A DNA stretch of 60,897 nucleotides from Myxococcaceae bacterium. Lineage in GTDB: Bacteria; Myxococcota; Myxococcia; Myxococcales; Myxococcaceae. How positions within the stretch are numbered: the stretch's first letter is position 1; each line of letters opens with the position of its first letter. The notes beneath the pieces were generated by a model. The model did no database searches. It was given only the letters and a program-made list of their open reading frames with translations, and was not told where the DNA came from. A program made the translations under genes and the position numbers. The stretch spans positions 218,174-279,070 of the forward strand of contig JBGALX010000012.1 of NCBI GenBank assembly GCA_044223505.1, written 5' to 3'. Shown here piece by piece: positions 134 to 41,874 of this stretch.

Positions 134-206
134 GCCGCTCGGTCCTTATAGCGCGCACCCTGGCTGCCCCGCAGAAGACGGGGTGACTTTGCAGGCACGC
201 GCCGGC

Positions 207-2066
<1,860 letters not shown>

Positions 2067-3826: not shown

Positions 3827-3909
3827 GGCCGCCTGAAGAGCAGGCCGCGTGCCCCGGGCCTGGCCCGTGCCGGCGGGCGCTTGCGGGCCGGCGGAATCGG
3901 CTGAACAGT

Positions 3910-4164: not shown

Positions 4165-4178
4165 GGTTTCGCCTCCGT

Positions 4179-6320: not shown

Positions 6321-6346
6321 TGTGGTTCTCCTGCGGGGTTGGGGTT

Positions 6347-7117: not shown

Positions 7118-7249
7118 GGCGGCCGACAGAGCAGCCGCTGTGCCCCGCGTTTGATTCGCCGGGTCGCGCACTTGGCGCGCGCGGCGTGGGACCGGAAGCG
7201 TCCATGAACTGTTCAGCCCCGGGTGTGCGGCGCTGTACTATTCGCCTCG

Positions 7250-8548: not shown

Positions 8549-8608
8549 GCACGACAAGTTCGCGCGTTGACAGCCTCGAGCCTGCGCGGCAGGTTGCTGC
8601 GCCGCGCG

Positions 8609-12655: not shown

Positions 12656-12683
12656 GCGCGCGGAGGTCTATACTCGCCGCGCA

Positions 12684-14252: not shown

Positions 14253-14439
14253 ACCGTTCAGCGAACTGTTCCGCGGGCGCTCGACTGCCGCGTGCTGTCA
14301 GACGACGGCAGGCTCGTCTGCGTCGCTCCGTCGACCGATGGCGGGCTGCACCTGGTGCTGCTCGAGCCGGTGCCTTGACAGCGCTCAGTGCTCGCCCGAG
14401 CGCGTGATTCGCGCGGCGGCCGCGCCCTGAGCGCGCCCG

Positions 14440-15294
14440 TCACTGAACCTGGGCGACGCCCCCCAGTGGTTCGAGGCTCGCGCGCAGGTGGACCTGATAG
14501 CCGCCGACCGTGAACTCGGTCTCGGTGGAGTTCCACACCGCGAAGTACGCTCGGCTGCGGACGTTCAGCGCCCGCAGCGCAGCTGGCGGAATGAAGAGCG
14601 AGCCGCCCGCTGCCGCCGCAGCACAGACGAGAAAGCTGTCGTTGTCTGCGCCGTCACTGCTCCACAGGATGGCCTCGACGAGGCCACCATCGGCGCTCCC
14701 ATTCCACGCGACCCGCGTGCCCGCATCGCGAGAGAAAGGGCCACAATCGAGCGGGCACGATGGAGATGTGACCGCGATCGCCCCCGGCATGCGCAGCGTC
14801 TTGCCGGTGAAGGGCGGAAGGCTGCCGCCGCCCGCAGAGAACGTGATGAGGTCATCTGCGCCGCTGGGGGTGAGCGGCACGAGGTAGCCGTTCTGGCCCC
14901 ACCGGTACTCGAGCCGGCGTTCCTCACCCGTGCTCGCGAACGACATCGTGATGGTGCCGGCGTCACCGGGTGACCCGGCGTCGACGCGCAGAGCCTTACC
15001 GGTGCAATCGAAGAGCTCGCAGGCTCCGAAGCTCTGGCGCGCGCACGCGCGATGGTCTCCGTAGACGAAGGCCGCCCCCTGCGGCACGGCCGGCACGAAC
15101 ACCGCATCGGCGGAGAACGTGGTTCTCGCCTGCTTGACCCAGATTGACCCGAAGCCTTGCACCACCGCACCGCCACCCGCGCCACCTGCGCCACCCGCAT
15201 TGCTGGCTCCGCCCGTGCCCCCGCCCATTCCACCCGCGCCGCCCCCGCCGCTGCAGGCGCCCAGCACGAACGCCGCAATGAAGACGGACCTCAT
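14440..15294 (-). CDS. Lipoprotein with a Gly-rich linker (284 aa), hypothetical.
   Basis: MRSVFIAAFVLGACSGGGGAGG... has lipobox LGAC followed by a poly-Gly/Ala linker. It is convergent with the bEBP gene. Confidence 0.6.
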   Translation of the reverse strand: MRSVFIAAFVLGACSGGGGAGGMGGGTGGASNAGGAGGAGGGAVVQGFGSIWVKQARTTFSADAVFVPAVPQGAAFVYGDHRACARQSFGACELFDCTGKALRVDAGSPGDAGTITMSFASTGEERRLEYRWGQNGYLVPLTPSGADDLITFSAGGGSLPPFTGKTLRMPGAIAVTSPSCPLDCGPFSRDAGTRVAWNGSADGGLVEAILWSSDGADNDSFLVCAAAAAGGSLFIPPAALRALNVRSRAYFAVWNSTETEFTVGGYQVHLRASLEPLGGVAQVQ

Positions 15295-15560
15295 TGACGG
15301 CCGCCAGGCACAGCAACGCGCTCAGCCCACACGTCGTCTTCGAGTGACATGACTCGCTTGGTGAACATGCGGTCGCGCAGGATGCCACAGCCGAAGCAGG
15401 TGTCGGGTCGGATCCCGGTTCGCGATGCACGCTCGACCTGCGCGAGCGTCAGCGTCATGGCTCACCCAGAGCCCAGTCACGCCATCCAAAACTCGCGCGC
15501 GGTGCCGCTCGCCGCGCTCGCTTTCTGAAATTCGGAATCACTTTCGCGTACGGTGTGGCC

Positions 15561-16307
15561 ATGACCAGTCCCGTCATCTGGTTCGATCACAGCGATCCCG
15601 CGATGGGACTCGCGGGAGAGCAGGCGCGCGCGACGTTTCGCTACTTCATGCGCGAGCTGAGCTGGGAGCGTCGCCGCATCATCAAGGCGTTCGATCTCGC
15701 CGCCGTGAAGGCCGCGTTCACCGACGGCACCCACACCGAGCACATGTGGCTCGCCGACATCGAGTTCGACGGGACCACACTGCACGGCACGCTCCTCAAC
15801 CGGCCGAACCAGGTGGACAGCGTCGACGAGGGCGACCGCGTCGAGGTGAGCTTCGCCGAGCGCGTCGGCGACTGGATGTTGTGCATGCAGGATCGCGTGT
15901 ACGGCGCCTACACGGTCCACCTCATGCGCTCGCGCATGTCCGCGCGCGAGCGCAAGGACCACGACGGTGCGTGGGGGCTACCGTTCGGTCCGCCGGACGC
16001 CCCCCTCCTCCCGAACGCCAGGAGCCCCGACGACGAGACCGATCACCCGATGGCCGTGAACATGAAGGCCTCGCTGCAGCAGGCGCTCGCCAAGAACGCG
16101 GCGGCGTTCCTCGCGCCCGACGAGCGCGGCTGGACGATGCTCCACGACGAGGCGCTGTGCGGCAACCCGATCGTCGTCGAGGGCCTGTTGCAGCACGGCG
16201 GGAACGCGAACGCGCGCACCCGCGCCGGCGTCACACCGCTCGCGCTCGCGACCGCCTGGAAGTGGACGCGGGTCGCAGAGCTGCTGCGCCGCGCCGGTGC
16301 GACGTGA
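15561..16307 (+). CDS. DUF2314-like domain fused to ankyrin repeats (249 aa).
   Basis: The N-terminal half matches the DUF2314 family pattern (FRYFMRELSWERRRII...HMWLADIEFDG). The C-terminal TMLHDEALCGNPIVVEGLLQHGGNANARTRAGVTPLALA is ankyrin-repeat-like. Confidence 0.6.
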   Translation: MTSPVIWFDHSDPAMGLAGEQARATFRYFMRELSWERRRIIKAFDLAAVKAAFTDGTHTEHMWLADIEFDGTTLHGTLLNRPNQVDSVDEGDRVEVSFAERVGDWMLCMQDRVYGAYTVHLMRSRMSARERKDHDGAWGLPFGPPDAPLLPNARSPDDETDHPMAVNMKASLQQALAKNAAAFLAPDERGWTMLHDEALCGNPIVVEGLLQHGGNANARTRAGVTPLALATAWKWTRVAELLRRAGAT

Positions 16308-16606
16308 GCCTGGCGTTCCCGGCCGTCTACAACATGGCGAGCGATGAGCGAACAGCAGATCGTGAATCGCGCCATCGACGACGCGACGGACGAAAGGCCG
16401 GACGACGGCACGGTCCTCCTCCGTGAGGCGCCCGAGGTCTGCCTGCAGCTGTCTGACGGCAGGGGCCTTCCAGTGGCCCTTCATCGTGAGCTCTGCCGAG
16501 TCGAATGCCGTGTCCCGCCGCTCCATGACGAAGCGACCGAAGTCGCCCAGCGCCTTGCCCCATCCCGACAGGGTACTCGCTATGGACTCAACGTAGGCAC
16601 CCGGCC

Positions 16607-17074
16607 CTACAGCTTGTGCTCGTCGATGAACGCCCGCACCGCGCGGCGCGAGAGAATCACGCCGAGGTCGTCGCTCGCCTGCGAGCCCATCGGCCGCTCG
16701 GGCCCGCGCTCCTGCAGCTCGTACTGCCCCACGACCTTCTCGGTGCCGCTCGCGTCTTCGACGAGGCGAAGGGTCACCTTCAAGGTCTGCACCTTGCGCA
16801 CCTGCATCGGCATGGCCTGGGGCTGCGGGCTCGCCGACGGCGGCCGAAACACGGGCTCGTCGAAGCTCGTCGTCGACGCCTCGACGTGCAGGTGCAGCTC
16901 GGCCTTCTCGGGGTCGAGCTCGAAGCGCTCGGCGATGGCCTCTTTCATCATCGACTGAGCGTCGGCCGAGCCGCTCACCTCGCCGAGCCCCACGCGCTTG
17001 CCGAGCACCGTCGGCTTCGGCGTCACGTGCGTGCACGCGACGAGCAGCAGGCCCGTCGCCAGGGCCCTCGTCAC
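16607..17074 (-). CDS. Small lipoprotein (155 aa), last gene of the PTS/kinase operon.
   Basis: GTG at 17072-17074 overlaps the TGA of the upstream kinase gene (GTGA). N-terminus VTRALATGLLLVACTHV has lipobox LVAC. Only the C-terminal 155 codons of track ORF 16607..18823 look protein-like. Confidence 0.55.
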   Translation of the reverse strand: MTRALATGLLLVACTHVTPKPTVLGKRVGLGEVSGSADAQSMMKEAIAERFELDPEKAELHLHVEASTTSFDEPVFRPPSASPQPQAMPMQVRKVQTLKVTLRLVEDASGTEKVVGQYELQERGPERPMGSQASDDLGVILSRRAVRAFIDEHKL

Positions 17075-18888
17075 GCGCGGCTCCTCAAGAGGCGCGCCAC
17101 CTGCTCGCAGACGTCGAACGGCTTCTGCAGCCACTCGTTCGGCACCGAGTCGAGAAAGCGCCGCGCCCGGTCGGTGAACGCGCCGCCCGTCATGAACACG
17201 AGCGCGCGCTCGGCTCCGGGCCGCTTCACCTTGAGCTCTTCGTAGACGTCCATGCCCGAGACGTCGCGCATCATCAGGTCGCAGAACACCAGGTCGAAGT
17301 GCTCGCCGCTCGTGAGCCGCTCGACCGCCTCGCGCCCCGACTGCACCACCACCACGTGGTGCTTCGCGAGCTCGAGCGCGCTCGCCATCACCCGCCCCAG
17401 GTTCACGTTGTCGTCGATGAGCAGCACGCGCGCCCCCTCGGGCCGCGTCGCGGGCGCCTCGGCGGGCAGCCGCACCCGGAACACCGCACCGCCCTCGCGC
17501 CGGTTCTCGACCTCGATGCGCCCCTTGAGCTCGCTCACCAGGTTGCGGCACACGAAGAGCCCCAGGCCCGTGCCTTCGCCGACGGCCTTCGTCGTCACGA
17601 AGGGCTCGAAGATGCGCTCGAGCAGCTCGGGCTTCACGCCCGCGCCCGTGTCGGCGACCTCGACCACCGCGTCGTGCGGCTCGGCGCGCGTCGCGACCCG
17701 AACCACGTGACCGCCCGGCCGCTCGACGTCGCGCACCGCGTGCACGGCGTTGAGCAGCAGGTTCATGAACACCTGCACCAGCCGCCGCTCGCTCGCCCTC
17801 ACGTGAACGCCGCTCGCGAGGTCGAGCGACAGCCGCGCCACCGGGTCGAGCTGGCTGCGCAGCATCTGCACCGCCGTTCGCACCGCGGACGAGACGTCGA
17901 CGCTCTGCATCGGCTCGTCGTCGCGCCGCGTGAACGTCTGCAGGTCCGACGTGATGACCCGCACGCGCTCGGCGCCCTCTTTCACGTCGGCGAGCAGCTG
18001 CCGCACCTCGGGCGTCGCGCCGCCCCCGAGCTCGCGCTCGATGCTGCGCAGGCCCTCGAGCACGTACGCGAGCGGGTTGTTGATCTCGTGTGCGACGCTG
18101 GCCGCGAGCGTGCCCATCGCCGCCATGCGCTCGGAGCGGAAGACCGCCGACTGCGCCGCGTGCCGCTCGGTGACGTCGGTCGTCACACCGATGATGCCCG
18201 TCACGCGCCCCGCGGCGTCGCGGAGCGGGCCCATCCACCCCTCGAGCACGGCGCCGTCGATGTGCGTCAGCGACGTGAACGACTCGCCGTCGAGCGCCCG
18301 CCGCATGTTCGAGATGACCCCGGCGTTGCTCGCGTACACCTCGAACACCGACTTGCCGATGAGCTCGCCCGGGCTGCGCCCCAGCGCCTTGAGGCCCGCG
18401 CCCTCCGAGAGCGTCACCACGCCGCGCGAGTCGGTCGTGAAGATGATGATGGGCGCGTGGTGCACCGCGAGGTCGAGCTGCATCTCGGCCGTGCGCTCGG
18501 CCGTGATGTCGAAGAACGACACCATCACCGCCTCGACGACGCCGCTCGCGCCGAAGAGCGGCTTGCCGTAGGCGCGCACGTGCACGCGCCGGCCGTCGCC
18601 GCGGTGCACGACGATGTCGTCGACCATCACGACGCTGCGCGCCTGCAGCGCCTGCACGAACGGCAGGCGCTCTTCGGGGTACGGCTGGCCGTCGCGCGTG
18701 AAGAGCCCGTACGGCTCGGAGTAGGCGCCCGCCGCCGCCCCGGTCACCGGGCCCATGCCCATGATCTCGTCGAACGCCTCGTTCGAGTACAGGTGCTCGC
18801 CGCCCGGAGCCCGCGCCACCCACACTCCGACGGGGAGCCCGCGCAGAATCGCGCTCGAGGTCTCGTGAGTCAGCGCGTTCAAAGTCAC
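17071..18888 (-). CDS. Hybrid sensor histidine kinase / response regulator with PAS domains (PAS-PAS-HisKA-HATPase_c-REC), cytoplasmic, 605 aa.
   Basis: H-box HEINNPLAYV, G-box DTGAGV...GTGLGL, and a receiver domain with LLIDDN...DLVFCDLMM. The start is placed at GTG 18886-18888, overlapping the TGA of ptsI. The upstream in-frame codons are Arg-rich antisense of ptsI. Confidence 0.8.
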   Translation of the reverse strand: MTLNALTHETSSAILRGLPVGVWVARAPGGEHLYSNEAFDEIMGMGPVTGAAAGAYSEPYGLFTRDGQPYPEERLPFVQALQARSVVMVDDIVVHRGDGRRVHVRAYGKPLFGASGVVEAVMVSFFDITAERTAEMQLDLAVHHAPIIIFTTDSRGVVTLSEGAGLKALGRSPGELIGKSVFEVYASNAGVISNMRRALDGESFTSLTHIDGAVLEGWMGPLRDAAGRVTGIIGVTTDVTERHAAQSAVFRSERMAAMGTLAASVAHEINNPLAYVLEGLRSIERELGGGATPEVRQLLADVKEGAERVRVITSDLQTFTRRDDEPMQSVDVSSAVRTAVQMLRSQLDPVARLSLDLASGVHVRASERRLVQVFMNLLLNAVHAVRDVERPGGHVVRVATRAEPHDAVVEVADTGAGVKPELLERIFEPFVTTKAVGEGTGLGLFVCRNLVSELKGRIEVENRREGGAVFRVRLPAEAPATRPEGARVLLIDDNVNLGRVMASALELAKHHVVVVQSGREAVERLTSGEHFDLVFCDLMMRDVSGMDVYEELKVKRPGAERALVFMTGGAFTDRARRFLDSVPNEWLQKPFDVCEQVARLLRSRA

Positions 18889-20642
18889 TCCGCTCCGCTG
18901 AAGCGCTTCTCCATCTCCATGCGCACGAAGCGTTCGATCTCTTCCGCCGTCGAGAACTCCATCGCGCGCTCGAGCAGCGACTGCGCCTCGGTGCGGCTCG
19001 TCTGTCGCACGATGCGCTTCACCGCCGCGAGCTGGCCTGCCGTCATCGAGAGCTCCTCGAAGCCGAGCGCCAGCAGCACGAGCGTGTACGTCGGGTCGCC
19101 CGCCATCTCGCCGCACATCGCGACGGGGATGCCGGCGTTCTTCGCCGCGCGCACGATGTTCTGCAGGCTGCGCAGCACGGCGAGGTGCAGCGGGCGATAG
19201 AGGTACGCGACGTCGCGGTTCTGCCGGTCGATCGCGAGCGAGTACTGGATCAGGTCGTTCGTGCCGATGCTGAAGAAGTCGGCCTCCTGGGCGAGCCGGT
19301 CGGCGATCCACGCGGCGCTCGGCGTCTCGACCATGATGCCCACCGGGAAGCGCTTGCCCACCGGCACGCCCGCGCGGCCCAGCTCGCTCTTGCAGTGCTC
19401 GAGCTCGCTGCGCGCCTCGCGCAGCTCCGACAGGCCGCTGATCAGCGGGAACATGATGCGAATGTTGCCGTGCGCCGATGCCCGCAGCATCGCGCGCAGC
19501 TGCACGCGGAACAGCTCGCGGTGGTGAAGGCAGTAGCGAATCGCCCGCAGGCCGAGCGCCGGGTTCGCCTCGCGCTCGGGCTTGCGGCCCGGCACCTTGT
19601 CGCCGCCCAGGTCGAGCGTGCGAATCGTGACGGGCCGGCCGCCCATCGCCTCGAGCACCTCGCGGTAGACCTTGTAGTGCTCCTCTTCGCTCGGAGCCTC
19701 GGTGCGGTTCAGGAACATGAACTCGGTGCGGTACAGGCCGATGCCTTCGGCGCCGTGCGCGAGCAGCGAGGGGATCTCTTCGGGGAACTCGATGTTCCCG
19801 TTCAGGTGAATCTGGTGGCCGTCGAGCGACACCGCGCGCAGCTCGGCCGTCTGCAGCGCCGTGGCCTCGGAGGCCTGGTGCCGCCGCATCGTCTCGCGGA
19901 ACAGCGCGAGCTGGGCGTCGGTCGGGTTGACCAGCACGAGGCCCTGGTTGCCGTCGACCGCGATGAGGTCACCCGGCCGAATCGAGTCGCTCGCGCGCCC
20001 CGCGCCGACCACGGCCGGCACCTCGCGCGCGCGCGCGACGATGGCGGTGTGGCTCGTCTGGCCGCCGAGGTCGGTGACGAACGCGGCGACCTTGCCGGTG
20101 CGCACCAGCAACGCGGCGTCGGCGGGCGAGACGTCGTGCGCGACGACGACCGAGTCGCTCGGCAGCTCGACCTCTTCGTCCATCGCGTGGCCGAGCAGGT
20201 TGCGCACGACGCGATCGGCGACGAAGTCGACGTCGGCCCGGCGCTCGCGAAAGTACTCGTCCTCCATGTTGTCGAACTGGTGCTTGATGCGGCGCGCGAC
20301 CCGGCGCACGGCCCACTCGGCGTTGATCGCCTCTTCCTGGATCAGCCGGTTCACCTCGACGATGAACATCGGGTCCTGCAGCATCAGCTTGTGCGCCTCG
20401 AGAATGAGGCCGTGGTCCTTGCTGCCGTCTTGCGAGTCGGTCTGCAGCTTCTCTTTGAGGTCGTCGAGCTGGCTCGACGAGAGCTCGACCGCCGTCTTGA
20501 AGCGCAGCGCCTCGGGGTCGATCTCACCGTCTTGCAGCTTCACCTTCGGAGTGCGGACGCGCCGGTTGTCGAGCACGTACGCGTGGCCGACCGCGACCCC
20601 CGGCGACGCTCCGATGCCCTTGAACGATTGCGTCGCGCTCAC
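18885..20642 (-). CDS. ptsI: Phosphoenolpyruvate-protein phosphotransferase, PTS Enzyme I.
   Basis: Full-length EI with the phospho-His region GGQTSHTAIVAR and a PEP-utilizing C-terminal domain (GIGLYRTEF..., MCGEMAGD). Confidence 0.92.
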   Translation of the reverse strand: MSATQSFKGIGASPGVAVGHAYVLDNRRVRTPKVKLQDGEIDPEALRFKTAVELSSSQLDDLKEKLQTDSQDGSKDHGLILEAHKLMLQDPMFIVEVNRLIQEEAINAEWAVRRVARRIKHQFDNMEDEYFRERRADVDFVADRVVRNLLGHAMDEEVELPSDSVVVAHDVSPADAALLVRTGKVAAFVTDLGGQTSHTAIVARAREVPAVVGAGRASDSIRPGDLIAVDGNQGLVLVNPTDAQLALFRETMRRHQASEATALQTAELRAVSLDGHQIHLNGNIEFPEEIPSLLAHGAEGIGLYRTEFMFLNRTEAPSEEEHYKVYREVLEAMGGRPVTIRTLDLGGDKVPGRKPEREANPALGLRAIRYCLHHRELFRVQLRAMLRASAHGNIRIMFPLISGLSELREARSELEHCKSELGRAGVPVGKRFPVGIMVETPSAAWIADRLAQEADFFSIGTNDLIQYSLAIDRQNRDVAYLYRPLHLAVLRSLQNIVRAAKNAGIPVAMCGEMAGDPTYTLVLLALGFEELSMTAGQLAAVKRIVRQTSRTEAQSLLERAMEFSTAEEIERFVRMEMEKRFSGAE

Positions 20643-20646
20643 GGCG

Positions 20647-20925
20647 TCACGATGGCTCCCCGAACCGGTTCTTCACCAGCACACCAATCTCGTCGACGCA
20701 CTGCTTCGCGCCTTCGCCCTCGCACTTCAGCGTCACCGTCATGCCCTGCGCCGCCGCGAGCATCAGCACGCCCATGATGCTCTTCGCGTTCACCGTCTGG
20801 CCCTCGCAGGTCAGCGAGACGTCGCACTTGTACCGGTTCGCGATCTTGACGAGCTGCGCCGCAGCGCGGGCGTGGAGCCCGAGCGCGTTGATGATCTCAA
20901 GATCGATGCTTGCGACGTCCATCAT
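20647..20925 (-). CDS. ptsH: Phosphocarrier protein HPr.
   Basis: MMDVASIDLEIINALGLHARAA carries the His-15 active-site context (GLHARA). It is about 92 aa and lies 4 nt upstream of ptsI. Confidence 0.85.
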   Translation of the reverse strand: MMDVASIDLEIINALGLHARAAAQLVKIANRYKCDVSLTCEGQTVNAKSIMGVLMLAAAQGMTVTLKCEGEGAKQCVDEIGVLVKNRFGEPS

Positions 20926-20953
20926 CCCCTCGGTGAGTCGGCGGCGGAGCGTC

Positions 20954-21709
20954 TCATTGAAGCGCCCCCGCCACAATGGCCAGCAGCGCCGAACCGTAGA
21001 GCGCCGCCCACCGCGAGCCCCGCGTCTCCGAGACGGCGAACGACAGCACCGCGATGAGCAGACATCCTCCGGTCAATAACGGCACCGACAGCCCGCTGCG
21101 GTGCGCGAACACCACGCTCAAGTACGCCGCCAGCGCTCCCGCCGCCGCCGCCGCCACCGCCCGCAGCCGCTCGCCCCAGCGCGGGATGTTGAGCTGCCCG
21201 AGCTTCGCCACCAGCCCGTCGCCGTGCAGGTAGCCGAGGCGGAAGAAGCGCGCCCGCGCCGTGAGGTGCACCGCGTTGAAGAGAAAGAGGAACAGCACCG
21301 CGCACCACACGCCGAGCAGCGGGTACAGGGCCGCGCTGACGGCCCCGCACGCCGGCCGCAAGCTGAACCAGAAGAAGCCGTCGCCGAGCGCCGCGAGCGG
21401 CCCCATCAGCGAGGCCTTGAAGTGCTCGGCCGACGAGGCCGGCGCCTCGCTGCGCGCCATGCGCTCCTCGTGGTGGAGGATGCCGCCCACGATCGCCGCC
21501 GCCACGTACGGGTGCGTGTTGAACGTCGTCGACAGGTGCCGCTGCACCGCCGCCGCCTCGGCCTGCGGCTCGGGGTACAGCGCCTTCAGCGCCGGCAAGA
21601 GCGCGTACGTGAGCCCGAGCGACTGCTGGCCCCGCGGGTTGTAGCCCGCCTGAATGAAGAGGCTGCGCCAGAACACGCGCGCGCGCACCGTGCGAGTCAG
21701 CGTCTTCAC
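20954..21709 (-). CDS. PTS mannose/fructose/sorbose-family EIID component.
   Basis: VKTLTRTVRARVFWRSLFIQAGYNPRGQQSLGLTYALLP... is the conserved IID N-terminus. GTG at 21707-21709 overlaps the TGA of the IIC gene. The upstream 313 codons of the track ORF are an Arg-rich artefact. Confidence 0.75.
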   Translation of the reverse strand: MKTLTRTVRARVFWRSLFIQAGYNPRGQQSLGLTYALLPALKALYPEPQAEAAAVQRHLSTTFNTHPYVAAAIVGGILHHEERMARSEAPASSAEHFKASLMGPLAALGDGFFWFSLRPACGAVSAALYPLLGVWCAVLFLFLFNAVHLTARARFFRLGYLHGDGLVAKLGQLNIPRWGERLRAVAAAAAGALAAYLSVVFAHRSGLSVPLLTGGCLLIAVLSFAVSETRGSRWAALYGSALLAIVAGALQ

Positions 21710-22410
21710 CCGCGGAACCTCCCGGTGAGGCCGAGCGCGAAGAGCATGGCGAGGGCGGCGGCGCCGGCGAGCGCCGCGGCCTTCTTCGAGTGGCTGCCCC
21801 GCACCGCGAGGCCCGCCGCGACCGAGGCCATCACCGGGTAGGCCCAGCTCAGCCCGCGCAAGAGCGGTGAGGGCAGAGCGCGCTCGAGCGGCTCGGCCGC
21901 GAACCCGAGCGCGGCGGCCGCAGCCGAGAGCAGCCCGAACGCGACGAAGTGCGGCCACATGCCCCAGAGGTTCTGGCGCGCGACGCGGTGGAAGTCTTCG
22001 CCCGAGGCGCTCGTCATGGCCTCGCCGAGGTAGCGCACGGCGCGGGCGTCGAACGCGTTCTCGATGGCGCGGCCGGCGGGGCCGAGCGGCGCGAAGAGAA
22101 TGATGCTGAGGCTCCAGATGGCGGTGGTGCCGGGCGAGTGGGCGGCGGCCGAGAGCGTCGAGGCGAAGGCGGCGGCGCAGACCGAGGGCAGGGTCTCGTG
22201 GTCCGAGTGCACTCCGCCGAGCGAGGCGGCGCCGAGCCAGTAGAGCTCGAACACGAGCCCGACGAAGAGGCCGGACTCGGCGTCTTCGAGCAACAGGCCC
22301 GTGCCGGTCGCGGCCACCAGCGGCCGGCTGAACATGGCCTGCAAGAACGCGCGCCGCTCGAGGGCCAGGAGGCCGCCCCAGAGGCCGGCCACGGTGAGGT
22401 GCAGCACCAT
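21706..22410 (-). CDS. PTS mannose-family EIIC component (234 aa, polytopic membrane protein).
   Basis: Hydrophobic multi-TM protein immediately upstream of and start-stop coupled to IID. The sequence pattern is consistent with IIC(Man) (e.g. ...LEDAESGLFVGLVFELYWLG...). Confidence 0.7.
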   Translation of the reverse strand: MVLHLTVAGLWGGLLALERRAFLQAMFSRPLVAATGTGLLLEDAESGLFVGLVFELYWLGAASLGGVHSDHETLPSVCAAAFASTLSAAAHSPGTTAIWSLSIILFAPLGPAGRAIENAFDARAVRYLGEAMTSASGEDFHRVARQNLWGMWPHFVAFGLLSAAAAALGFAAEPLERALPSPLLRGLSWAYPVMASVAAGLAVRGSHSKKAAALAGAAALAMLFALGLTGRFRG

Positions 22411-22449
22411 CGACGGACCTCTTAACTGATGGGCCCCTCGATGTGACGA

Positions 22450-22785
22450 TTACTCCTGCAGGCAGTAGTGCAGCGCCCCGGCGTCGCAGCTGCGGCCCGA
22501 GAAGCTCCACCAGGAGGGCGAGATCGAGCGCGGGTCGCCGACGCGCGCAGAGTTGGCGGGCGACGACCACGACGAGCACGTGTTCCCGAGGCCGCCCGTC
22601 CACACGGGCAGGCCGCTGTCGGGCACGTCCGAGAGGCTCGTCAGCCACGGCGCGGGCAGCACGGCGTTCGCCAGGTCGGCGAGGTCGCCGGGCGAGGTGA
22701 ACGCCGGGTAGCCGTCGAGGCGGTACCAGTTGCCGCCGTCGAGCCGGAACCGCACGTAGGCGTCGAGACCGCCGTCGACGCTCAC
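22450..22785 (-). CDS. Small ORF (about 111 aa from a GTG) whose sequence resembles the C-terminal half of a C-type lectin-like fold; possibly a frameshifted C-terminal extension of the upstream gene.
   Basis: WLTSLSD...GLPVWTGG...CSSWSS...WWSFSGRSCDAGALHYCLQE. The protein-like part begins within a few nt of the stop of the upstream 365-aa gene in the +1 frame. There is no ATG and no signal peptide. Confidence 0.3.
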   Translation of the reverse strand: MSVDGGLDAYVRFRLDGGNWYRLDGYPAFTSPGDLADLANAVLPAPWLTSLSDVPDSGLPVWTGGLGNTCSSWSSPANSARVGDPRSISPSWWSFSGRSCDAGALHYCLQE

Positions 22786-22808
22786 GAGCGCGCGAGCGTG
22801 AGACGCCG

Positions 22809-23903
22809 TCAGCCGTCCCAGCTCAGCGTGCGCACGGCAGCGTCGAGCTCGGCGTCGGCCTCGGCGGGCTCCTGCCACGGCGGCCGCGAGAGCGTGACGG
22901 CGAGAGCGGCCTCGCCGCGCCTCAGCCACCGCGCGTGCGACGACACCTGCATGCTGCCGGCCCGGCCGGTGAAGGCGACGGTGACGAGCTCTTCGGCGCC
23001 GCCGGCCCGCGGTGCGGGCGCGACCTCGAGCCGCTCGGTGGCGACGCCCTGCTTTTCCCACGAGGCGTAGAAGGCGCGCAGCTGCTGCTCGAGCGTGCCC
23101 TGCAGCGGCAGCGCGACGACCTCGAACAGCTGCGGGTCGGCGCGCAGCGAGTGGAACACGCGCGTGAACGTGTAGTGGCCCTTCGGCGAGGGCATCACGC
23201 CGTCGGGCACCCGGCCGAACCGCGGCGGCGCCGCGACCGTGACGCCGGCGAGCTCGAGGCGCTCTCTCGCGGGCGGCGGCGCGGCCGGTGCGACGACCTC
23301 GAGCCGGCCCGCGAGCGTGCGCAGCGTCTTTCGGGCGCGGCTCAGGCAGTGGGCGGGGAACTTCGCGTCGAGCGCTTCGTCGTCGACGCGCGCGAAGAAG
23401 TCGGGGCCGCGCTGCTTGCCCGCGCTCAGGTAGACGACCGACTCGCGGCCGCCGGTGGTGGTGTCGGTGGCCGAGACCGAGAGCTCGGCGCAGCCGCCGG
23501 CGAGCGGCACGAGCAGCCGCGCGACCACGAGCTCGCCCGACGGCCGGTAGTCGCGCCGGTAGACGAGCCGCACGCCTTCGCCGCCCTTCAGGGGCACGCG
23601 CTCGAACGCGGTGAGCGCGTTGAAGCCCGGCTGCTGGGTGGCGGCGGGCTCCTTCGGCGCGGGGAGGCTCGCCCAGAGCTGCTCGAGCTCCCAGCGGGTC
23701 GAGCGCTCGACGGCGGCGCGGTGAGCGGCGGCGGGCTCGAGCACGAGCCGCCACGGCAGGCGAATCACCTCGACGACGCACGAGGGGTCTTCTGCCTCGA
23801 GCACGAGCTGGCCGACGGTGTTCGAGCGCACGGGCCAGGAGTCGGGGAGCGAGAGCTTCAGCCCGGCGCTGCCGTCGCCGAGGTCGCTCTTGAGCGAACG
23901 CAT
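22809..23903 (-). CDS. Hypothetical protein (365 aa) embedded in the PTS operon.
   Basis: Internal ATG at 23903 (MRSLKSDLGDG...). Non-repetitive, protein-like composition with high GC3. No recognisable family. Confidence 0.5.
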   Translation of the reverse strand: MRSLKSDLGDGSAGLKLSLPDSWPVRSNTVGQLVLEAEDPSCVVEVIRLPWRLVLEPAAAHRAAVERSTRWELEQLWASLPAPKEPAATQQPGFNALTAFERVPLKGGEGVRLVYRRDYRPSGELVVARLLVPLAGGCAELSVSATDTTTGGRESVVYLSAGKQRGPDFFARVDDEALDAKFPAHCLSRARKTLRTLAGRLEVVAPAAPPPARERLELAGVTVAAPPRFGRVPDGVMPSPKGHYTFTRVFHSLRADPQLFEVVALPLQGTLEQQLRAFYASWEKQGVATERLEVAPAPRAGGAEELVTVAFTGRAGSMQVSSHARWLRRGEAALAVTLSRPPWQEPAEADAELDAAVRTLSWDG

Positions 23904-23977
23904 GGCGCGCACGTTACTCGCACGCGCGACGTTGAGCGCGGCTCTCGCACGTGCCTGTCGCCGGGTGGGCTCGCGGG

Positions 23978-24961
23978 TCAGCGCGGCACGAGCGGCCGCG
24001 CGACGCCGTCGAGCTCGCACCGCACGAGCCGGCGGGCCTCGGGGCCGACCGCAATCGACACCTGCAGCTCGCAGGGGCTCTCGAGCCGGGTGACGATGCC
24101 GAGCGTGGCGCCCGAGCACGCGCCGGTCTGCTCCCACTGCAGCCGCGCCTCGAGGTCGGCTCCTGGCGCGAGCGCGGCGGTCGAAGCGCTGGCCGTGACG
24201 CCGACGGCGAGCTCGCGGCCCGGGTCATCGAGCGCGAGCAGGGTCGACGTGAAGCGGGTGGCCCGAACGACGGTCACCGTCACCGCTCGCGCCGAGTCGC
24301 CGCGGTTCGTCACGCGCACGGCGTCGGCGCTGCACGCGAGCTCGAGGGGGCGCCACTGGGTGTCCTCGGCCCGGCGCTCGTACGCGTGGAGCAGCGGGGC
24401 GGCTCCGGCGATGACGGCGGCCGTGAGCACCCAGGCGAGGCCCGCGGCGAGCTGCCGGGCGCCGCCGTGCAGCACGCCGCGGTTGTAGGCGCCGACGGCG
24501 CGCACGCCGCCCACGAGGTCGGCGACGATGAGCAGGACCCACAGCCCGTAGCCGAAGCTCGAGGTCGAGCTGCCTCCGGCGGCGGCGACGAGCGAGCAGA
24601 GCCAGGCGGCGAGCAGCACCGCGCCGGTCCACGGGCGGCGCGCGTAGAAGTGGCCGCCCGCGGGAATGAGAAACGGCAGGCCGGCCGCGAGGCGCCGGCG
24701 GAGCGTGCGCCGCGGCGGAGGCTCGGGCTCCTCGTGCGGCTCGGGTGCGTGCTTCAGCGCCTCGAGCACCTCGTTCGCGCGAGCGACGTCGGCGGTGGGC
24801 ACCTGGAGCGCGAGGGGCAGAATCTCGGGCGAGACGCCGAGCAGGGCGGCGTCGGCGAAGCCCTCGATGCGGGCAGGGACGCCCTCACCCTCGAGCGCAG
24901 AGAGCCACAGCTCGGCCTCGACGCGGTCGGTGGTGTTGCGAATCGTCTCGAAGGCGCCCAT
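23978..24961 (-). CDS. Membrane protein with a DUF2007-like N-terminal domain, then Pro/Glu linker, TM region and C-terminal domain (327 aa).
   Basis: N-terminus MGAFETIRNTTDRVEAELWLSALEGEGVPARIEG resembles the putative signal-transducing DUF2007 fold. Two hydrophobic helices follow. Confidence 0.5.
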   Translation of the reverse strand: MGAFETIRNTTDRVEAELWLSALEGEGVPARIEGFADAALLGVSPEILPLALQVPTADVARANEVLEALKHAPEPHEEPEPPPRRTLRRRLAAGLPFLIPAGGHFYARRPWTGAVLLAAWLCSLVAAAGGSSTSSFGYGLWVLLIVADLVGGVRAVGAYNRGVLHGGARQLAAGLAWVLTAAVIAGAAPLLHAYERRAEDTQWRPLELACSADAVRVTNRGDSARAVTVTVVRATRFTSTLLALDDPGRELAVGVTASASTAALAPGADLEARLQWEQTGACSGATLGIVTRLESPCELQVSIAVGPEARRLVRCELDGVARPLVPR

Positions 24962-25038
24962 CGGGCGGGATGACCCCGAAGGAAGAGGTCGAGGGCAGCA
25001 AACCCGAACGGCGCCGCGGGTGCGGCGAGGCGCCTGGC

Positions 25039-25473
25039 TCAGGGACCCGAGCGTGAGCCACCGAGATCCGGTGAGCGGTTGAAGCGCTCGTCGGTGATGA
25101 GCTGCCTCGCTTCGTCGATGGGGTACTCCTCTGCTTCGAGCACCAGGTCCCTGCGCTCGGACGCCACGACGATGCGGAAGGCGCGTGCCTCACCGGGCCT
25201 GAGCATCACGTCTTCTCGCGCTGGCTCGTGACCGCTCGCCGAGAAGCGCAAGAGATGGTCTCCAGGCGAGACCTCGACCTGGACAAAGTCGCCGATGGAG
25301 ACCTCGAAGCGGTGCCCGTCGAGCTGCATCTCGTAGCTCTGCATGACCGGCGGCCCGCGCGTCACGCACACGACGGCCATGGTCGAGGTCGAAGGCCGGC
25401 ACAGCTCGGCGCTTGGCTTCACTGCGCGTACGCACCCCGCCAGCAGCATCACCAACGCGATCGACCATCGCAT
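25039..25473 (-). CDS. Small lipoprotein (144 aa), hypothetical.
   Basis: MRWSIALVMLLAGCVRA has lipobox LAGC. Confidence 0.55.
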   Translation of the reverse strand: MRWSIALVMLLAGCVRAVKPSAELCRPSTSTMAVVCVTRGPPVMQSYEMQLDGHRFEVSIGDFVQVEVSPGDHLLRFSASGHEPAREDVMLRPGEARAFRIVVASERRDLVLEAEEYPIDEARQLITDERFNRSPDLGGSRSGP

Positions 25474-25519
25474 GGGTCCAAGCTAGACCAGCAGCGAGTC
25501 GCCCCGCAGCCTCGACGCT

Positions 25520-25972
25520 TCAGCGCAGCGCTTGCGCGGGCTCGTTGGGCACGGCCTGAATGTTGACGGCGAGCCCGTCGCGGCTCAGGTCGAGCAGCTG
25601 GCGCTTCTCGTTCTCGGTGAGGAAGACGCTGCGGCTGACGGCGAGGCGCTCGGGGCCGGCGTGCACGTTGCCGAGGTTGAGGGGGCCGGTGAGGCCGAGC
25701 GCGTAGGCGCGAACGGCGGCCGGCACGTCGCGCAAGAGCACGAGGGTGCGGGGCGCGTCGTTGAGCAGCTTCTTGAACGGCACGTCGTCGACGCGGGCGA
25801 CGAGCACGTCGACGTCAGGCGGCACGGCGAGGCTCATCGCGGCGCGGGCGAGCGGGTCGGCGACCGTGACGTCGTCGGCCACGACGATGCGCTGAATCTT
25901 CAGGTGAGGCAGCCAGGTCTCGATCACCTGCCCGTGAATGAGGCGGCTGTCGACGCGGATGAGCGAGATCAC
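25520..25972 (-). CDS. PTS mannose/sorbose-family EIIB component.
   Basis: MISLIRVDSRLIHGQV contains the conserved IIB(Man) phospho-His motif (RIDDRLIHGQV-type). Confidence 0.8.
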   Translation of the reverse strand: MISLIRVDSRLIHGQVIETWLPHLKIQRIVVADDVTVADPLARAAMSLAVPPDVDVLVARVDDVPFKKLLNDAPRTLVLLRDVPAAVRAYALGLTGPLNLGNVHAGPERLAVSRSVFLTENEKRQLLDLSRDGLAVNIQAVPNEPAQALR

Positions 25973-26050
25973 AGCGGAGGAAACACTCCTGTACGACGGT
26001 CCGGTTCCGGCTCTAGCGCCGTCGCTCGGGCATGTCGAGCGTGCGGGCGC

Positions 26051-26473
26051 TCAGTGCGCCGGAACCCGCAGCGCGTCGCGCAAGAGCTGCGACGCCAGCG
26101 TGATGTTCCGCTGCCCGTACTGCACGAGCGCGTGCGCCAGCGCGTTCACCGTGAGGCCCTCGTGGCGCATCGACGCCGCCTTGATCACCATCGGCAGGTT
26201 CACGCCGCAGACGACCTCGAGGTTCGCCTTCGCGCACAGCGCCATCGACTCGCGGCACGGCGACCCACCGAACAGGTCGGCCAGCACCAGCACGCCGTCG
26301 CCTTGATCGACGCGCTGCACGGCCTCTTGAATGCGCTCGCGCAGCTGCTCGGCCGACGACCCCGGCTCGACCGAGCACCACGTCACCTGCGCGAGCACAC
26401 CGACGATCTGCTCGGCTGTCGAGAGCATCTCTTGCGCGAGCCTGCCGTGAGTGGCGACGACGAGACCGACCAT
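26051..26473 (-). CDS. PTS mannose-family EIIA component (140 aa).
   Basis: Internal ATG at 26473 gives MVGLVVATHGRLAQEMLSTAEQIVG (IIA-Man phospho-His region ...THG...). Confidence 0.8.
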   Translation of the reverse strand: MVGLVVATHGRLAQEMLSTAEQIVGVLAQVTWCSVEPGSSAEQLRERIQEAVQRVDQGDGVLVLADLFGGSPCRESMALCAKANLEVVCGVNLPMVIKAASMRHEGLTVNALAHALVQYGQRNITLASQLLRDALRVPAH

Positions 26474-26495
26474 CTCGAACCCAAGTATCGCTGAG

Positions 26496-26510
26496 GGCCC
26501 TCGCGTGCAA
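26496..26510 (-). promoter_or_regulatory. Candidate sigma-54 (-24/-12) promoter upstream of the PTS operon.
   Basis: The minus-strand sequence GGTGCACCTGTTGCA has GG-N10-GC spacing with a perfect TTGCA -12 element. It lies about 25 nt upstream of the IIA start. Confidence 0.35.
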
Positions 26511-26549
26511 CAGGTGCACCGCCGACCCCGGCGCGTTAAACACACATTC

Positions 26550-27194
26550 ATGGCTCTGCTCCTGCGCGCCTGGGCCGACTACGTCTGACCCTGGTGCTAC
26601 GTCGGCCAGGTCGTGGCCGAGCGATTCTCGAAGGACTACTCGTTCGACGGAAAGCCTGTGCCCGTCGACTGGCAGCCGTTCCTCTTGCGCCCCGACGCCC
26701 CCCTCGAGGGCTGGGCGCTGCCCGAGCGCATCAAGGCGATGAAGAACCGCCCCGACAACCCGCTGCACCTGCGGGCGAAGCAGCTCGGGCTGCCGCTCGT
26801 CGAGCGCGACTGGATTCCGAATTCGCGCCGCGCCCTCGCCGCCAACGAGTACGTGCGCGAGCTCGGCGGCCTCGAGAAGCTGCACGCGTACCACTCTGCC
26901 GTCAACGCGCGGTACTGGGGCCAGGGCGAAGACCTCTCGAAGCTCGACGTGCTCGAGGCCGCCGCCCGCGACGCCGGCATCGACCCGGCCGGCGTGCGCG
27001 AGGCCGTCGAGAGCGGCACGTACGACCAGCGCATCGACGACGGCATCGCGAAGGCGAACGCGATGGGCATTCACGCGGTGCCGACGTACGTCTTCTTCGA
27101 CGGCGAGCGGCCGATCGGCGCGATTCAGGGCGCGCAGGAGTACGCCGTCTTCGAGCGCGCCGCCGCCCAGCTCGGGCTCACGCCTCAGCGGTAG
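26550..27194 (+). CDS. DsbA/FrnE-like thioredoxin-fold oxidoreductase with an in-frame TGA at the first Cys position of the CxxC motif (candidate selenoprotein, U-P-W-C).
   Basis: ATG 26550 gives MALLLRAWADYV, then TGA (26586-26588), then PWCYVGQVVAERF... continuing as track ORF 26613..27194. A 7-bp stem-loop UCGGCCA-GGUCG-UGGCCGA (26602-26620) starts 13 nt after the UGA. If the TGA is a true stop, the remaining ORF lacks the catalytic motif. Confidence 0.55.
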
Positions 27195-27547
27195 GCGGCG
27201 AGCGCCGCGGTGAACGTCTTCTCCTGCTCGGCGGCGGGCAGCTTCTGAAACGCTTCGCTCTTGAGCTTGCCCATCAGGGCGACCATCGCGCTCGGCTCCG
27301 AGAGCTTCGGCAGCGCGCGCTCGAACGCGGCGCGGGCCGCTGCGGGCAGCTTCTTGTACAGCGGCGAGTGCATCAGCTTGCGACCCAGGTCCTGCGTGGT
27401 GAGTCGCTTCACCTGGCCTTCGTGCCCGGTCGGCTCGAAGCCGTCGGCGTAGTTCGCTTGTACGCGCCGCTGGAGCGGCGTCGCCCCCGGCCGCGCGGCG
27501 TCGCTGCGCGAGACCGAGACGTCGGAGCCCACCGGCCGAACGGACAT
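27185..27547 (-). CDS. Small hypothetical protein (about 120 aa).
   Basis: Internal ATG at 27547 (MSVRPVGSDVSV...). Lys/Ala-rich helical C-terminus. It is convergent with the DsbA-like gene and overlaps it by 10 nt. Confidence 0.4.
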   Translation of the reverse strand: MSVRPVGSDVSVSRSDAARPGATPLQRRVQANYADGFEPTGHEGQVKRLTTQDLGRKLMHSPLYKKLPAAARAAFERALPKLSEPSAMVALMGKLKSEAFQKLPAAEQEKTFTAALAAYR

Positions 27548-27722
27548 GCGGCGGATCAGTGCAACGGCGGGACCAGCCGGCGGGCGCCTCCCCACGCGGG
27601 CTTACGCTGCGACGCGGGCGGTGCTCGCCCATGACAGGCTGTGCGCGCCTGCGCTCAAAACACTTCGGCCGCCGAACCCGAGAGGGCGCGGCGGCCGAAC
27701 GTCCCCACTTTGATGTCGAGCG

Positions 27723-28517
27723 TTACTTCGACAGCTGGCTCGAGAGCAGCTCGACGCAGCCGGTGACCGCGCGCTGCGCGTTCGACTTCGACGCGTAGGT
27801 CTCGCTGCGGGCGATGATGGCGCCGTTCGCGGCCTTCAGGTGGAAGTAGTACTGGCCGTCGGCCGCCGCGAGCACCGTGTAGCGGGCCGCGATGGCGCCG
27901 TTCGTGTTCACCGAGATGGCGCCGTTCGTCGCCGACGTCTTCGACGCGTACGACTGCGACTGCAGCACGATCTCGCCGTTCAGCGCGCGCACGTGGAAGT
28001 AGTACTTCGAGTCGAGACCCTTGAAGACCTCGAACTTCGCGTCGCCCGTGATGGCCAGGCCCTGCGCCACCGTCTGCTTCACCACCGTCGCCACCGACGT
28101 CATCGCGCGCGTCGCGTTCGACTGGCTCACGTACATCTCGCTCGCCGCCAGAATGTCGCCGTTCGCCGCCGACGCGACCACGAAGTACCAGCTGCCGTCG
28201 CTCGCCTCGCGGAGCAGGTACTTGCTCGCATCCTGGCCGTTCGCCTTCAGCGACTCGATGCCCGACAGCGCGCTCGCCTGCGTCGCGTAGCCCTGCGACT
28301 GCAGCACCTTCTCGCCGTTGCCCGCGAGCAGGTGGAAGTACGTCTTCCCGTCCTTGCCCACGAACGTCTCGAACTTGCCCTTCGCGCTCAGCGCCTCGTC
28401 GTTCACCTGGTACTCGTCGGCAGGCGACCCGACCTCGGTCGTGTCTTCGGCCCCGACGCCGCAGGCAGTGAAGGAGAGCGCGAACAGCGAAACGAGGATT
28501 TTGAAGTTGGAGTTCAT
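27723..28517 (-). CDS. Lipoprotein made of four tandem YegP/DUF1508-like repeats (264 aa).
   Basis: MNSNFKILVSLFALSFTACG has lipobox FTAC. The block KFE(T/V)F(V/K)G.DGK.YFHL.A.NGE.(V/I)L.SQ.Y recurs four times. The K/N/S/Y-rich composition is atypical for this genome. Confidence 0.75.
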   Translation of the reverse strand: MNSNFKILVSLFALSFTACGVGAEDTTEVGSPADEYQVNDEALSAKGKFETFVGKDGKTYFHLLAGNGEKVLQSQGYATQASALSGIESLKANGQDASKYLLREASDGSWYFVVASAANGDILAASEMYVSQSNATRAMTSVATVVKQTVAQGLAITGDAKFEVFKGLDSKYYFHVRALNGEIVLQSQSYASKTSATNGAISVNTNGAIAARYTVLAAADGQYYFHLKAANGAIIARSETYASKSNAQRAVTGCVELLSSQLSK

Positions 28518-28530
28518 GCCGCGGCCTTAC

Positions 28531-28546
28531 AGCAGCCCGCGTGCCA
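28531..28546 (-). promoter_or_regulatory. Candidate sigma-54 promoter immediately upstream of the YegP-repeat lipoprotein gene.
   Basis: The minus-strand TGGCACGCGGGCTGCT matches TGGCAC-N5-(T)TGC with GG-N10-GC spacing. The predicted TSS is only about 3 nt before the ATG, so the transcript would be leaderless. A sigma-54 activator gene lies divergently about 100 bp away. Confidence 0.4.
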
Positions 28547-28627
28547 CCTCTGCCCACACCCGTTTCCAGCCGGTTACGTCACGATGAGTTGCACGCGGCG
28601 CAACAACGAATGTAGAAGCTGCAACGA

Positions 28628-41800: not shown

Positions 41801-41874
41801 CGTCGGGCTTCGTCCGTACGTAGGGACGCTTGGGCTCCGCACGCAACGGGGCGCGCGGGCGTTACCGGTTGGTA

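Follow-up and report, generated by a model that had tools for sequence, protein, structure and literature searches.

A probable lineage-specific form of the myxobacterial mannose-family phosphotransferase operon

Mannose-family permeases of the phosphotransferase system (PTS), such as E. coli ManXYZ and the Man-PTS of Listeria, Lactococcus and Streptococcus (TC 4.A.6), are composed of four EII modules, IIA, IIB, IIC and IID, the first two being of the type phosphorylated on histidine. Our present analysis concerns one such system in a Myxococcaceae bacterium (GenBank assembly GCA_044223505.1). The window, that is the whole stretch of DNA analysed (60,897 nucleotides of contig JBGALX010000012.1), contains a string of 12 open reading frames (ORFs) on the minus strand, from 26473 down to 16607, coding for the four EII modules, HPr and enzyme I (EI, the product of ptsI), for a hybrid histidine kinase and for several other proteins. 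A literature search brought up no paper on a myxobacterial PTS.

PTS genes also occur beside signalling genes. In alphaproteobacteria (Brucella, Sinorhizobium, Agrobacterium) they are co-transcribed with two-component genes in the order bvrR-bvrS-hprK-ptsM-ptsO, where ptsM codes for EIIA-Man and ptsO for NPr; this arrangement has been taken as evidence of cross-talk between the PTS and two-component systems, and the BvrR/S-hprK-ptsM-ptsO operon of Brucella offers a precedent for their transcriptional link (PMC2937029). In Myxococcus xanthus, the hybrid kinases EspA and EspC, which carry a receiver domain, control turnover of MrpC (PMC4320627).

We consider it likely that the locus described here represents a lineage-specific form of the mannose-family PTS operon (IIA-IIB-IIC-IID-HPr-EI) conserved in myxobacteria, and that this form has been shaped in three layers. 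In a small clade of mostly uncultured Myxococcia, hprK and rapZ would no longer precede the operon, the new order being a GAF-type sigma-54 activator, a DUF1508 gene, a DsbA-like gene and the PTS operon. In the same clade, a soluble PAS-PAS hybrid kinase of EspA/EspC architecture and a clade-restricted lipoprotein would have become placed after ptsI. Finally, and only in the window genome, a 3.1-kb segment with four ORFs of poor conservation would have entered the 50-nt spacer between IIB and IIC. The value of this account is mostly corrective: what a preliminary description of this DNA had presented as a 10-kb interrupted PTS would be a standard myxobacterial operon carrying passenger DNA.

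The PTS operon and its counterparts in Myxococcota

Genes of the window, which has about 70% G+C, were picked by third-position GC together with homology; those described below are on the minus strand unless stated otherwise. ORFs and Pfam domains agree with the gene order given in the preliminary description and with its identification of a complete Man-family PTS, all six components included, with an unusually placed insertion. IIA (26051-26473, 140 amino acids, aa) matches PF03610 (2.5e-28, 98.9 bits), and its active-site His9, located in the motif ATHG, corresponds in the alignment to His10 of E. coli IIA-Man (1PDO), where the motif reads GTHG. IIB (25520-25972, 150 aa) matches the sorbose/mannose-type family PF03830 (3.8e-34, 118.6 bits) and keeps, in comparison with solved IIB chains, the motif RLIHGQV, whose histidine is the phosphorylated residue in this type, not a cysteine.

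The membrane subunits differ in how closely they resemble known ones. IIC (21706-22410, 234 aa) matches PF03609 at 1e-16, with 61.6 bits against a gathering score of 26.3 and profile positions 5-188 of 233 covered. Its match to ManY (6K1H) is weak (1.2e-3, 21.8 bits), and it scores far under the cutoffs of TIGR00822 and other NCBIfam models; it is a divergent member of the Man-family membrane subunits. IID (20954-21709, 251 aa) is recognized much more readily, by PF03613 (1.5e-38, 132.9 bits) and by solved IID chains (3e-33; 118 bits to 8HFS_Z), and shares the motifs FNTHPY and GPLAALGDGFFW with streptococcal transporters. An AlphaFold2 model of IID built with 15 homologs (pLDDT 75, pTM 0.71) matches 13 Man-PTS IID chains and nothing else; these matches span the full length (TMq 0.65 to ManZ), and the modelled protein has a complete ManZ-like fold.

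HPr (20647-20925; PF00381, 2.4e-28) retains, relative to solved HPr and Crh chains, both the histidine in GLHARAA and the HprK-target serine in NAKSIMG. It is nearer to Firmicute HPr/Crh than to NPr, the match to the latter being much weaker (32 bits). EI (18885-20642, 585 aa; PF05524, PF00391 and PF02896) is of the sugar type, without GAF domain, and its active-site His198 lies in GGQTSH.

The GTGA start-stop overlaps that had been claimed for IIC/IID, EI/kinase and kinase/lipoprotein are all present in the sequence; remaining intergenic gaps in the operon measure 4-78 nt and all genes have the same orientation. A terminator scan of the operon returned one terminator-like site against 3.4 expected by chance, and no credible terminator. 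Rfam (at gathering threshold) and tRNA scans of the whole window gave no match. Ratios of nonsynonymous to synonymous substitution (dN/dS), calculated between the window and its relative L001, are 0.10 for EI, 0.13 for HPr, 0.20 for IID, 0.22 for IIB and 0.31 for IIC, with a range of 0.10-0.37 across the PTS genes; both IIC and IID are under purifying selection. IIA, IIB, IIC and IID all have the features of mannose-family EII proteins, and PEP (phosphoenolpyruvate)-dependent sugar uptake is most likely their function, as predicted from sequence. None of the four reaches an NCBIfam cutoff, subfamily or equivalog, that would assign it a characterised sugar specificity, and all score well below.

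The relay, intact as regards its catalytic residues, would pass phosphate from PEP to EI His198, then to the histidine of HPr, to IIA His9, to the IIB histidine and finally to the substrate at the IIC/IID permease. Most likely the substrate taken up and phosphorylated would still be a hexose or an amino sugar. HPr, which retains its HprK-target serine, may in addition give the PTS a way to report carbon status. The permease is thus predicted to be probably functional, and a sensing role as well is plausible because of the linkage of the canonical operon to hprK-rapZ and the lack of catabolic genes nearby, both described below.

How ordinary this operon is can be judged from a one-genome-per-species scan, in which window proteins were mapped by tblastn onto 63 Myxococcota loci. 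Hundreds of proteins closely related to IID, with annotation as Man-family IID, occur in Archangium, Hyalangium and metagenome-assembled genomes of Myxococcaceae. The preliminary description had pointed to Polyangia and Myxococcia as the related genomes; IID homologs and the locus scan bear out Myxococcia, not Polyangia. The canonical cluster, hprK-rapZ-IIA-IIB-IIC-IID-ptsH-ptsI, is exemplified by Archangium violaceum (CP069396, L082), with the same six orthologs in the same order as in the window. Identities of window proteins to those of the Myxococcia loci are 55-60% for IID, 72-74% for EI and 62-74% for HPr. The canonical cluster is compact, with hprK and rapZ in front of it, unrelated genes behind it (MgtC in L082) and neither kinase nor lipoprotein after EI, whereas the window lacks hprK and rapZ. 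The hprK-rapZ pair lies directly upstream of the operon in 27 loci, including those of Archangium, Cystobacter and Anaeromyxobacter; in Myxococcus xanthus the operon is preceded by a divergent peroxiredoxin gene. Canonical loci never adjoin sugar-catabolic genes, and none was identified among the scanned ORFs of the 61-kb window.

Where IIB lies upstream of IIC, the gap between them is below 150 nt in 44 of 46 loci (median 47 nt). IIAB and IICD are therefore neighbours in these 44, and are parted in the window by the 3.1-kb insert; such adjacency is a feature of organisation, not of biochemistry. Since short gaps so predominate, since a kinase follows EI in only 2 of 44 loci and since hprK-rapZ stands upstream in 27, the compact six-gene operon is, as far as this comparison goes, the ancestral and ordinary state in Myxococcia. 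Departures from it were also seen. Eight loci (L031, L034, L045, L051, L053, L054, L055 and L059) have IIC-IID, with or without HPr and EI, and no IIA or IIB within 3 kb upstream, and in L026 (8341-9294) the IIB-IIC gap is 929 nt. It seems that the IIB/IIC spacer has repeatedly been a site of breakage or insertion in the PTS operons of Myxococcota, and its documentation as such is one outcome of this work.

The insert and the promoter of IIA

The 3.1-kb lineage-specific insertion (22411-25519) between IIB and IIC comprises four ORFs. Nearest to IIB is a lipoprotein of 144 aa (25039-25473), read from the sequence by its lipobox LLAGC, which belongs to no Pfam, NCBIfam or PADLOC family and for which the related loci have no homolog. 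The next ORF codes for a protein of 327 aa (23978-24961) consisting of an N-terminal DUF2007 domain (PF09413, 2e-6), a hydrophobic (transmembrane) region and a C-terminal domain, likewise without homolog in related loci. The third ORF (22809-23903) codes for a 364-aa orphan with no family match; its single homolog among 5.8 billion proteins is the copy in L001, which occupies the same site and is 62% identical (dN/dS 0.65). Last comes a small ORF of uncertain start (22450 to about 22800), also with no family match. It is 35% identical to the C-terminal domain of a secreted protein of about 1500 aa in L034, and is probably a fragment of the Cys/Trp-rich C-terminal domain of large secreted proteins. 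In L034 the gene for this secreted repeat protein (4623-9242, plus strand) is followed immediately by an orphan IIC-IID pair, in whose vicinity IIA, IIB, HPr and EI are all missing; the shared position before IIC may be a coincidence or the trace of a common rearrangement.

The content of the IIB/IIC junction changes from relative to relative. Seven lineages, the window and six others, have the hybrid kinase after EI, and the junction can be read in six of them, as the contig of L086 begins inside EI. It is empty in L002, L083 and the P0126 contig, holds one EamA transporter gene in L081, and in L001 holds the 364-aa orphan and then two ORFs unrelated to the window insert; with the window, this makes four states among six lineages. 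About 25 nt before IIC, including the RBS (ribosome-binding site)-like AAGAGG, are kept in the insert-bearing loci, which places the insertions between the IIB stop codon and this pre-IIC element. In the window the RBS-like CAGTTAAGAGG lies at 22418-22428, and the upstream motif is common to L081 and L001. A search for direct or inverted repeats flanking the insert found only low-identity, GC-rich chance matches, and no mobile-element genes were found.

The preliminary description had regarded the lipoprotein, the DUF2007 protein and the hypothetical protein as accessory components of the PTS, and had named variable synteny in advance as the outcome that would speak against its proposal. Such variability is what the orthologous loci display for the insert: its genes are absent or replaced in the readable relatives, L001 keeping only the orphan. 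To judge by this pattern, the insert is passenger DNA, a variable cargo and not PTS machinery. It would be read through from the IIA promoter.

Two other views of the insert were considered. A defence island is unsupported, as scans of the insert genes and the terminal lipoprotein against Pfam, NCBIfam and PADLOC gave only DUF2007 and a sub-threshold match to CarboxypepD_reg, and the insert contains no defence-system family. Genes on the plus strand, where GC skew is positive, were rejected: GC content at third positions is higher in the minus frames, DUF2007 is read in a minus frame, and the L001 homolog of the orphan is collinear with the minus frame.

The promoter region of IIA (26484-26520) was examined in an alignment of four orthologous promoters plus that of L083. 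The sigma-54-like element proposed there earlier, GGTGCACCTGTTGCA, is indeed present at 26506-26520, and in this string, GGTGCACCTGTTGC, GG and GC stand 12 nt apart, start to start, as in -24/-12 promoters. As a sigma-54 signal it is weak and no better than chance: it has three mismatches to TGGCAC-N5-TTGCW, a consensus which at two or fewer mismatches already occurs 20 times in the window against 17.8 expected, and the GG at -24, nearly invariant in sigma-54 promoters, is found in only two of the five promoters (window and L083), being TG in L001 and L081 and CT in L002. Invariant in all five are CTGTTGC (26507-26513) and GCGATACT (26484-26491), the latter starting 15 nt past the former and ending 10 nt before the IIA ATG. 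An inverted repeat, GTGCA-N5-TGCAC (26505-26519; GTGCA-CCTGT-TGCAC in the window), overlaps the conserved TTGC block. This repeat, perfect in the window and L081 but degenerate in L001 and L002, is a candidate operator for a regulator. The operon is probably driven by this conserved promoter, with its TTGC and GATACT blocks and near-leaderless IIA start, and not by sigma-54. The pattern fits a -35/-10 type better than a -24/-12 type, a reading that we hold loosely because the hexamers are imperfect; a scan for the sigma-70 consensus from 16 to 27 kb gave no site, and the proposal relies on conservation.

A genuine sigma-54 promoter, by contrast, is located two genes away. The near-consensus TGGCACGCGGGCTGCT (28531-28546, one mismatch) stands immediately upstream of a DUF1508-repeat gene (27723-28517), and about 40 nt upstream of it is the palindrome GTTGC-N7-GCAAC (28588-28604). 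A GAF-type sigma-54 activator gene (28628-30124) is divergent from the DUF1508 gene and 2 kb away from the PTS operon. The promoter (TGGCACG-N4-CTGCT) and palindrome are kept in L001, L002 and L083; the extracted segment of L081 has the palindrome and ends before the promoter position. Presence of the activator is therefore explained without involvement of the PTS, and the sigma-54 signal of the neighbourhood belongs to another gene.

The hybrid kinase and possible signalling roles

The gene after EI (17071-18888, 605 aa) codes for a cytoplasmic hybrid histidine kinase with Pfam domains in the order PAS-PAS-HisKA-HATPase-REC and motif residues H267 and D537. Its stop codon overlaps the start of a gene for a small lipoprotein (16607-17074, 155 aa, lipobox LVAC). 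As the preliminary description had noted, the kinase is tightly joined to ptsI by a GTGA overlap, and this bond is not peculiar to the window. Additional relatives came from the gene neighbourhoods of the nearest homologs of IID and kinase, and in all six EI is followed by the kinase, overlapping or within about 30 nt, and then by a lipoprotein of 154-156 aa. Kinase identity to the window is 86% in L081, 79% in L001, 73% in L086, 72% in L002, 66% in the P0126 contig and 63% in L083. Lipoprotein identity is 45-80% in L001, L002, L081, L083 and L086, and the P0126 contig has a 154-aa gene at the same position. The junction of EI, kinase and lipoprotein is, by this synteny, a real and clade-specific feature. 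Coupling of this sort does not extend over Myxococcota: of 44 loci that extend 2 kb or more past EI, only L001 and L002 have the kinase there and 42 lack it. Because the junctions overlap or nearly so, it is almost certain that kinase and lipoprotein are transcribed and translated together with the PTS genes.

The kinase has homologs of the same architecture outside PTS context, in P0129 (61%), P0130/L085 (60-61%) and L084 (50%). Its best NCBIfam matches, EspC (348 bits, cutoff 1200) and EspA (334 bits, cutoff 1400), remain below the equivalog cutoffs. No PRD, EIIA/EIIB-like or HPr-like domain was found in it with Pfam, which argues against direct phosphorylation by the PTS. The terminal lipoprotein belongs to a family of only six representative clusters among 1.84 billion proteins, and its single-sequence AlphaFold model (pLDDT 69) had no significant match in the PDB (best E = 0.04, TM-score below 0.3). 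Within P0246, a protein of 3712 aa, 14 stretches are 30% identical to residues 38-94 of the lipoprotein, which suggests that its core is a repeatable module. With dN/dS of 0.41 for the kinase and 0.44 for the lipoprotein (window against L001), both are evolving more rapidly than the PTS genes.

Several points weigh against the account that we prefer, of an ordinary PTS operon with passenger DNA. A single transcript is predicted for the operon, and transcription may also start internally, within the insert or ahead of IIC. The strong divergence of IIC (E = 1e-3 to ManY, NCBIfam subfamily cutoffs missed by far) leaves transport competence a prediction. The presumed -35 and -10 hexamers have only 3/6 and 4/6 matches and a short spacer of 15 nt. 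The orphan sits at the same site in two genomes under some constraint (dN/dS below 1); it is a real gene and may have a local role. Moreover, EI, kinase and lipoprotein have stayed together while both flanks were rearranged, and this could reflect selection for a functional link.

It is conceivable, though we regard it as doubtful, that the myxobacterial Man-type PTS is mainly sensory or regulatory, transport by IIC and IID serving to set the phosphorylation of HPr and IIA for other targets. Equally doubtful would be the assignment of these targets to HprK/RapZ-type regulation in canonical genomes and possibly to the kinase in the window. Sugars are known to support little or no growth of myxobacteria, which favours such a role, as do the place of the canonical operon directly after hprK-rapZ and never beside sugar-catabolic genes, the want of identified catabolic genes among the scanned ORFs of the window, the retained regulatory serine of HPr, and the distance of the four EII proteins from the NCBIfam cutoffs for characterised sugars. 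Yet purifying selection has preserved IIB, IIC and IID throughout the class, IID keeps its two motifs and complete ManZ fold, and loss of the permease marks the purely regulatory PTS branches known to date (PMC2937029).

That the PTS and the hybrid kinase, the insert excluded, form one signalling device is in our view unlikely. Phosphorylation of EI, HPr or IIA/IIB would then reflect the PEP:pyruvate ratio or sugar flux, and a PTS protein would bind the PAS or catalytic region of the kinase and modulate its autophosphorylation, so that carbon status would be converted to a two-component output. EIIA-Ntr is known to bind the kinases KdpD and PhoR in E. coli. In seven lineages, with kinases diverged to 63%, EI/kinase and kinase/lipoprotein overlap or lie within 30 nt; rearrangements occurred directly downstream and inside the operon, never at these junctions; and the usual regulatory neighbours hprK-rapZ are not beside the operon in the kinase clade. 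A transcriptional link of this kind has its precedent in Brucella, as mentioned above (PMC2937029).

Against a signalling device stands, first, the kinase itself, with no domain for the PTS to phosphorylate, homologs of identical architecture that are not linked to any PTS, absence from 42 of 44 Myxococcota PTS loci, and, like the lipoprotein, faster evolution than the PTS genes. Cohesion of EI, kinase and lipoprotein may moreover be neutral, because overlapping genes offer no intergenic space for insertions. The regulatory-gene density of the 61 kb is high: it contains two hybrid kinases, the second (39281-42088, 936 aa) being of GAF-HisKA-HATPase-REC type, two sigma-54 activators and one Ser/Thr kinase, and the prior for a chance adjacency of kinase and PTS is therefore raised. 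Functional signalling from the PTS to the kinase, the basis of which is conserved adjacency in a shallow clade, must on balance be judged improbable.

A still less probable version is that the small uncultured Myxococcia clade swapped hprK-rapZ for a translationally coupled PAS hybrid kinase and lipoprotein, and that the kinase directly reads the phosphorylation of EI, HPr or IIA. Just as improbably, we would then be dealing with a PTS-to-two-component module not previously described, in which the insert genes are uninvolved. If the kinase did read the PTS, the locus would present a compact natural case of carbon-status sensing wired into two-component signalling, in a host group known for starvation-triggered development. 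The EI-kinase-lipoprotein junction is the sole candidate for new biology at this locus.

The model of the preliminary description in full, a sigma-54-driven regulatory PTS resembling PTS-Ntr, with the insert proteins as accessories and the kinase reading phosphoryl flux, is extremely improbable and already largely refuted by synteny: it can draw on the common strand, the short gaps and lack of terminators, the annotation of DUF2007 as a putative signal-transducing domain, the GG-N10-GC string upstream of IIA and the activator gene 2 kb away, but at the IIB-IIC junction of each of the five readable relatives the insert genes are missing or replaced, the string has its three mismatches and keeps GG in two of five promoters, the activator lies opposite a conserved promoter of its own, with upstream palindrome, before the DUF1508 gene, and a GAF-less EI, a Man-type IIA and a permease do not suit it.

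Neighbouring genes and comparison with known systems

Upstream of the operon, L001, L002, L081 and L083 have the same neighbours as the window, namely the GAF-type sigma-54 activator, the DUF1508 gene and the DsbA-like gene; this side falls outside the L086 contig and is not identifiable on the short P0126 contig. In the window, a 136-aa ORF (27185-27595) is present between the DsbA-like and DUF1508 genes, with no counterpart in these four loci, and is another small lineage-specific insertion. On the downstream side, about 16.4 kb of extra genes (134-16606) separate the terminal lipoprotein from a Rieske/VanA_C gene, whose N-terminus occupies 133-2; the Rieske gene begins 0-0.6 kb after the lipoprotein in L081, L083, L086 and the P0126 contig. 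This block, which includes an ABC exporter, the Ser/Thr kinase, a PEGA-domain protein, the second sigma-54 activator and a DUF2314-ankyrin protein, is by the same comparison a large lineage-specific insertion. The window genome has gathered intergenic insertions throughout the PTS neighbourhood.

The DsbA/FrnE-like gene (26550-27194, plus strand), divergent from IIA, has an in-frame TGA at 26586-26588 that replaces the first cysteine of a CPWC motif (AWADYV-TGA-PWCYVG). It is followed by a hairpin, GGCCA-GGTCG-TGGCC (26604-26618), whose fold energy alone is not significant (z = -0.8). The TGA codon, flanking peptide and hairpin are invariant in all five related loci. The gene likely codes for a selenocysteine (UxxC) selenoprotein truncated by gene callers, of a DsbA-like family already known (PMC1088965). 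No tRNA-Sec was found in the window.

Compared with known systems, the locus shares with mannose-family permeases the four EII modules, an IID model that superposes only on Man-PTS IID, and EI and HPr of sugar type. It differs from them in that IIA and IIB are not fused, IIC has diverged strongly, ptsH-ptsI lies within the operon, 3.1 kb part IIAB from IICD and a hybrid kinase follows ptsI. With the orphan hybrid kinases EspA and EspC of Myxococcus xanthus, for which PTS linkage is not reported, the kinase has in common only the PAS-PAS-HisKA-HATPase-REC architecture, with no cognate response regulator nearby; it has no FHA domain and scores far under the cutoffs for both.

PTS-Ntr (PtsP-PtsO-PtsN), to which the preliminary description had likened the locus by way of sigma-54, resembles it in that interest lies in regulation. 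The analogy breaks down in the proteins themselves. EI-Ntr has an N-terminal GAF domain, whereas the EI of the window has only PEP-utilisers_N, mobile and C domains; EIIA of PTS-Ntr is of Ntr/fructose type and acts without permease, whereas the IIA described here is a Man-type PF03610 protein accompanied by IIB, IIC and IID; and the -24/-12 element is weak and unconserved. Linkage to rpoN was not found either: six frames of the window contain no RpoN-box peptide, and the scanned ORFs no Sigma54 factor domain. None of the testable defining features of PTS-Ntr is present.

The regulatory PTS of alphaproteobacteria differs from the locus in having no permease, EI-Ntr and NPr, hprK, and a sensor kinase in the membrane together with a response regulator that binds DNA, both encoded upstream of the PTS genes. 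The window has a full permease, a sugar-type EI, no hprK, and a soluble orphan hybrid kinase, accompanied by no DNA-binding regulator, downstream of ptsI. The two are nevertheless alike in that a Man-type IIA and an HPr-family gene are co-located with two-component genes: in the window, IIA, HPr and the hybrid kinase belong to one tightly spaced string of genes on the same strand. Because of this Brucella-type joining of PTS and two-component genes, the idea of signalling between the PTS and a kinase is not without precedent.

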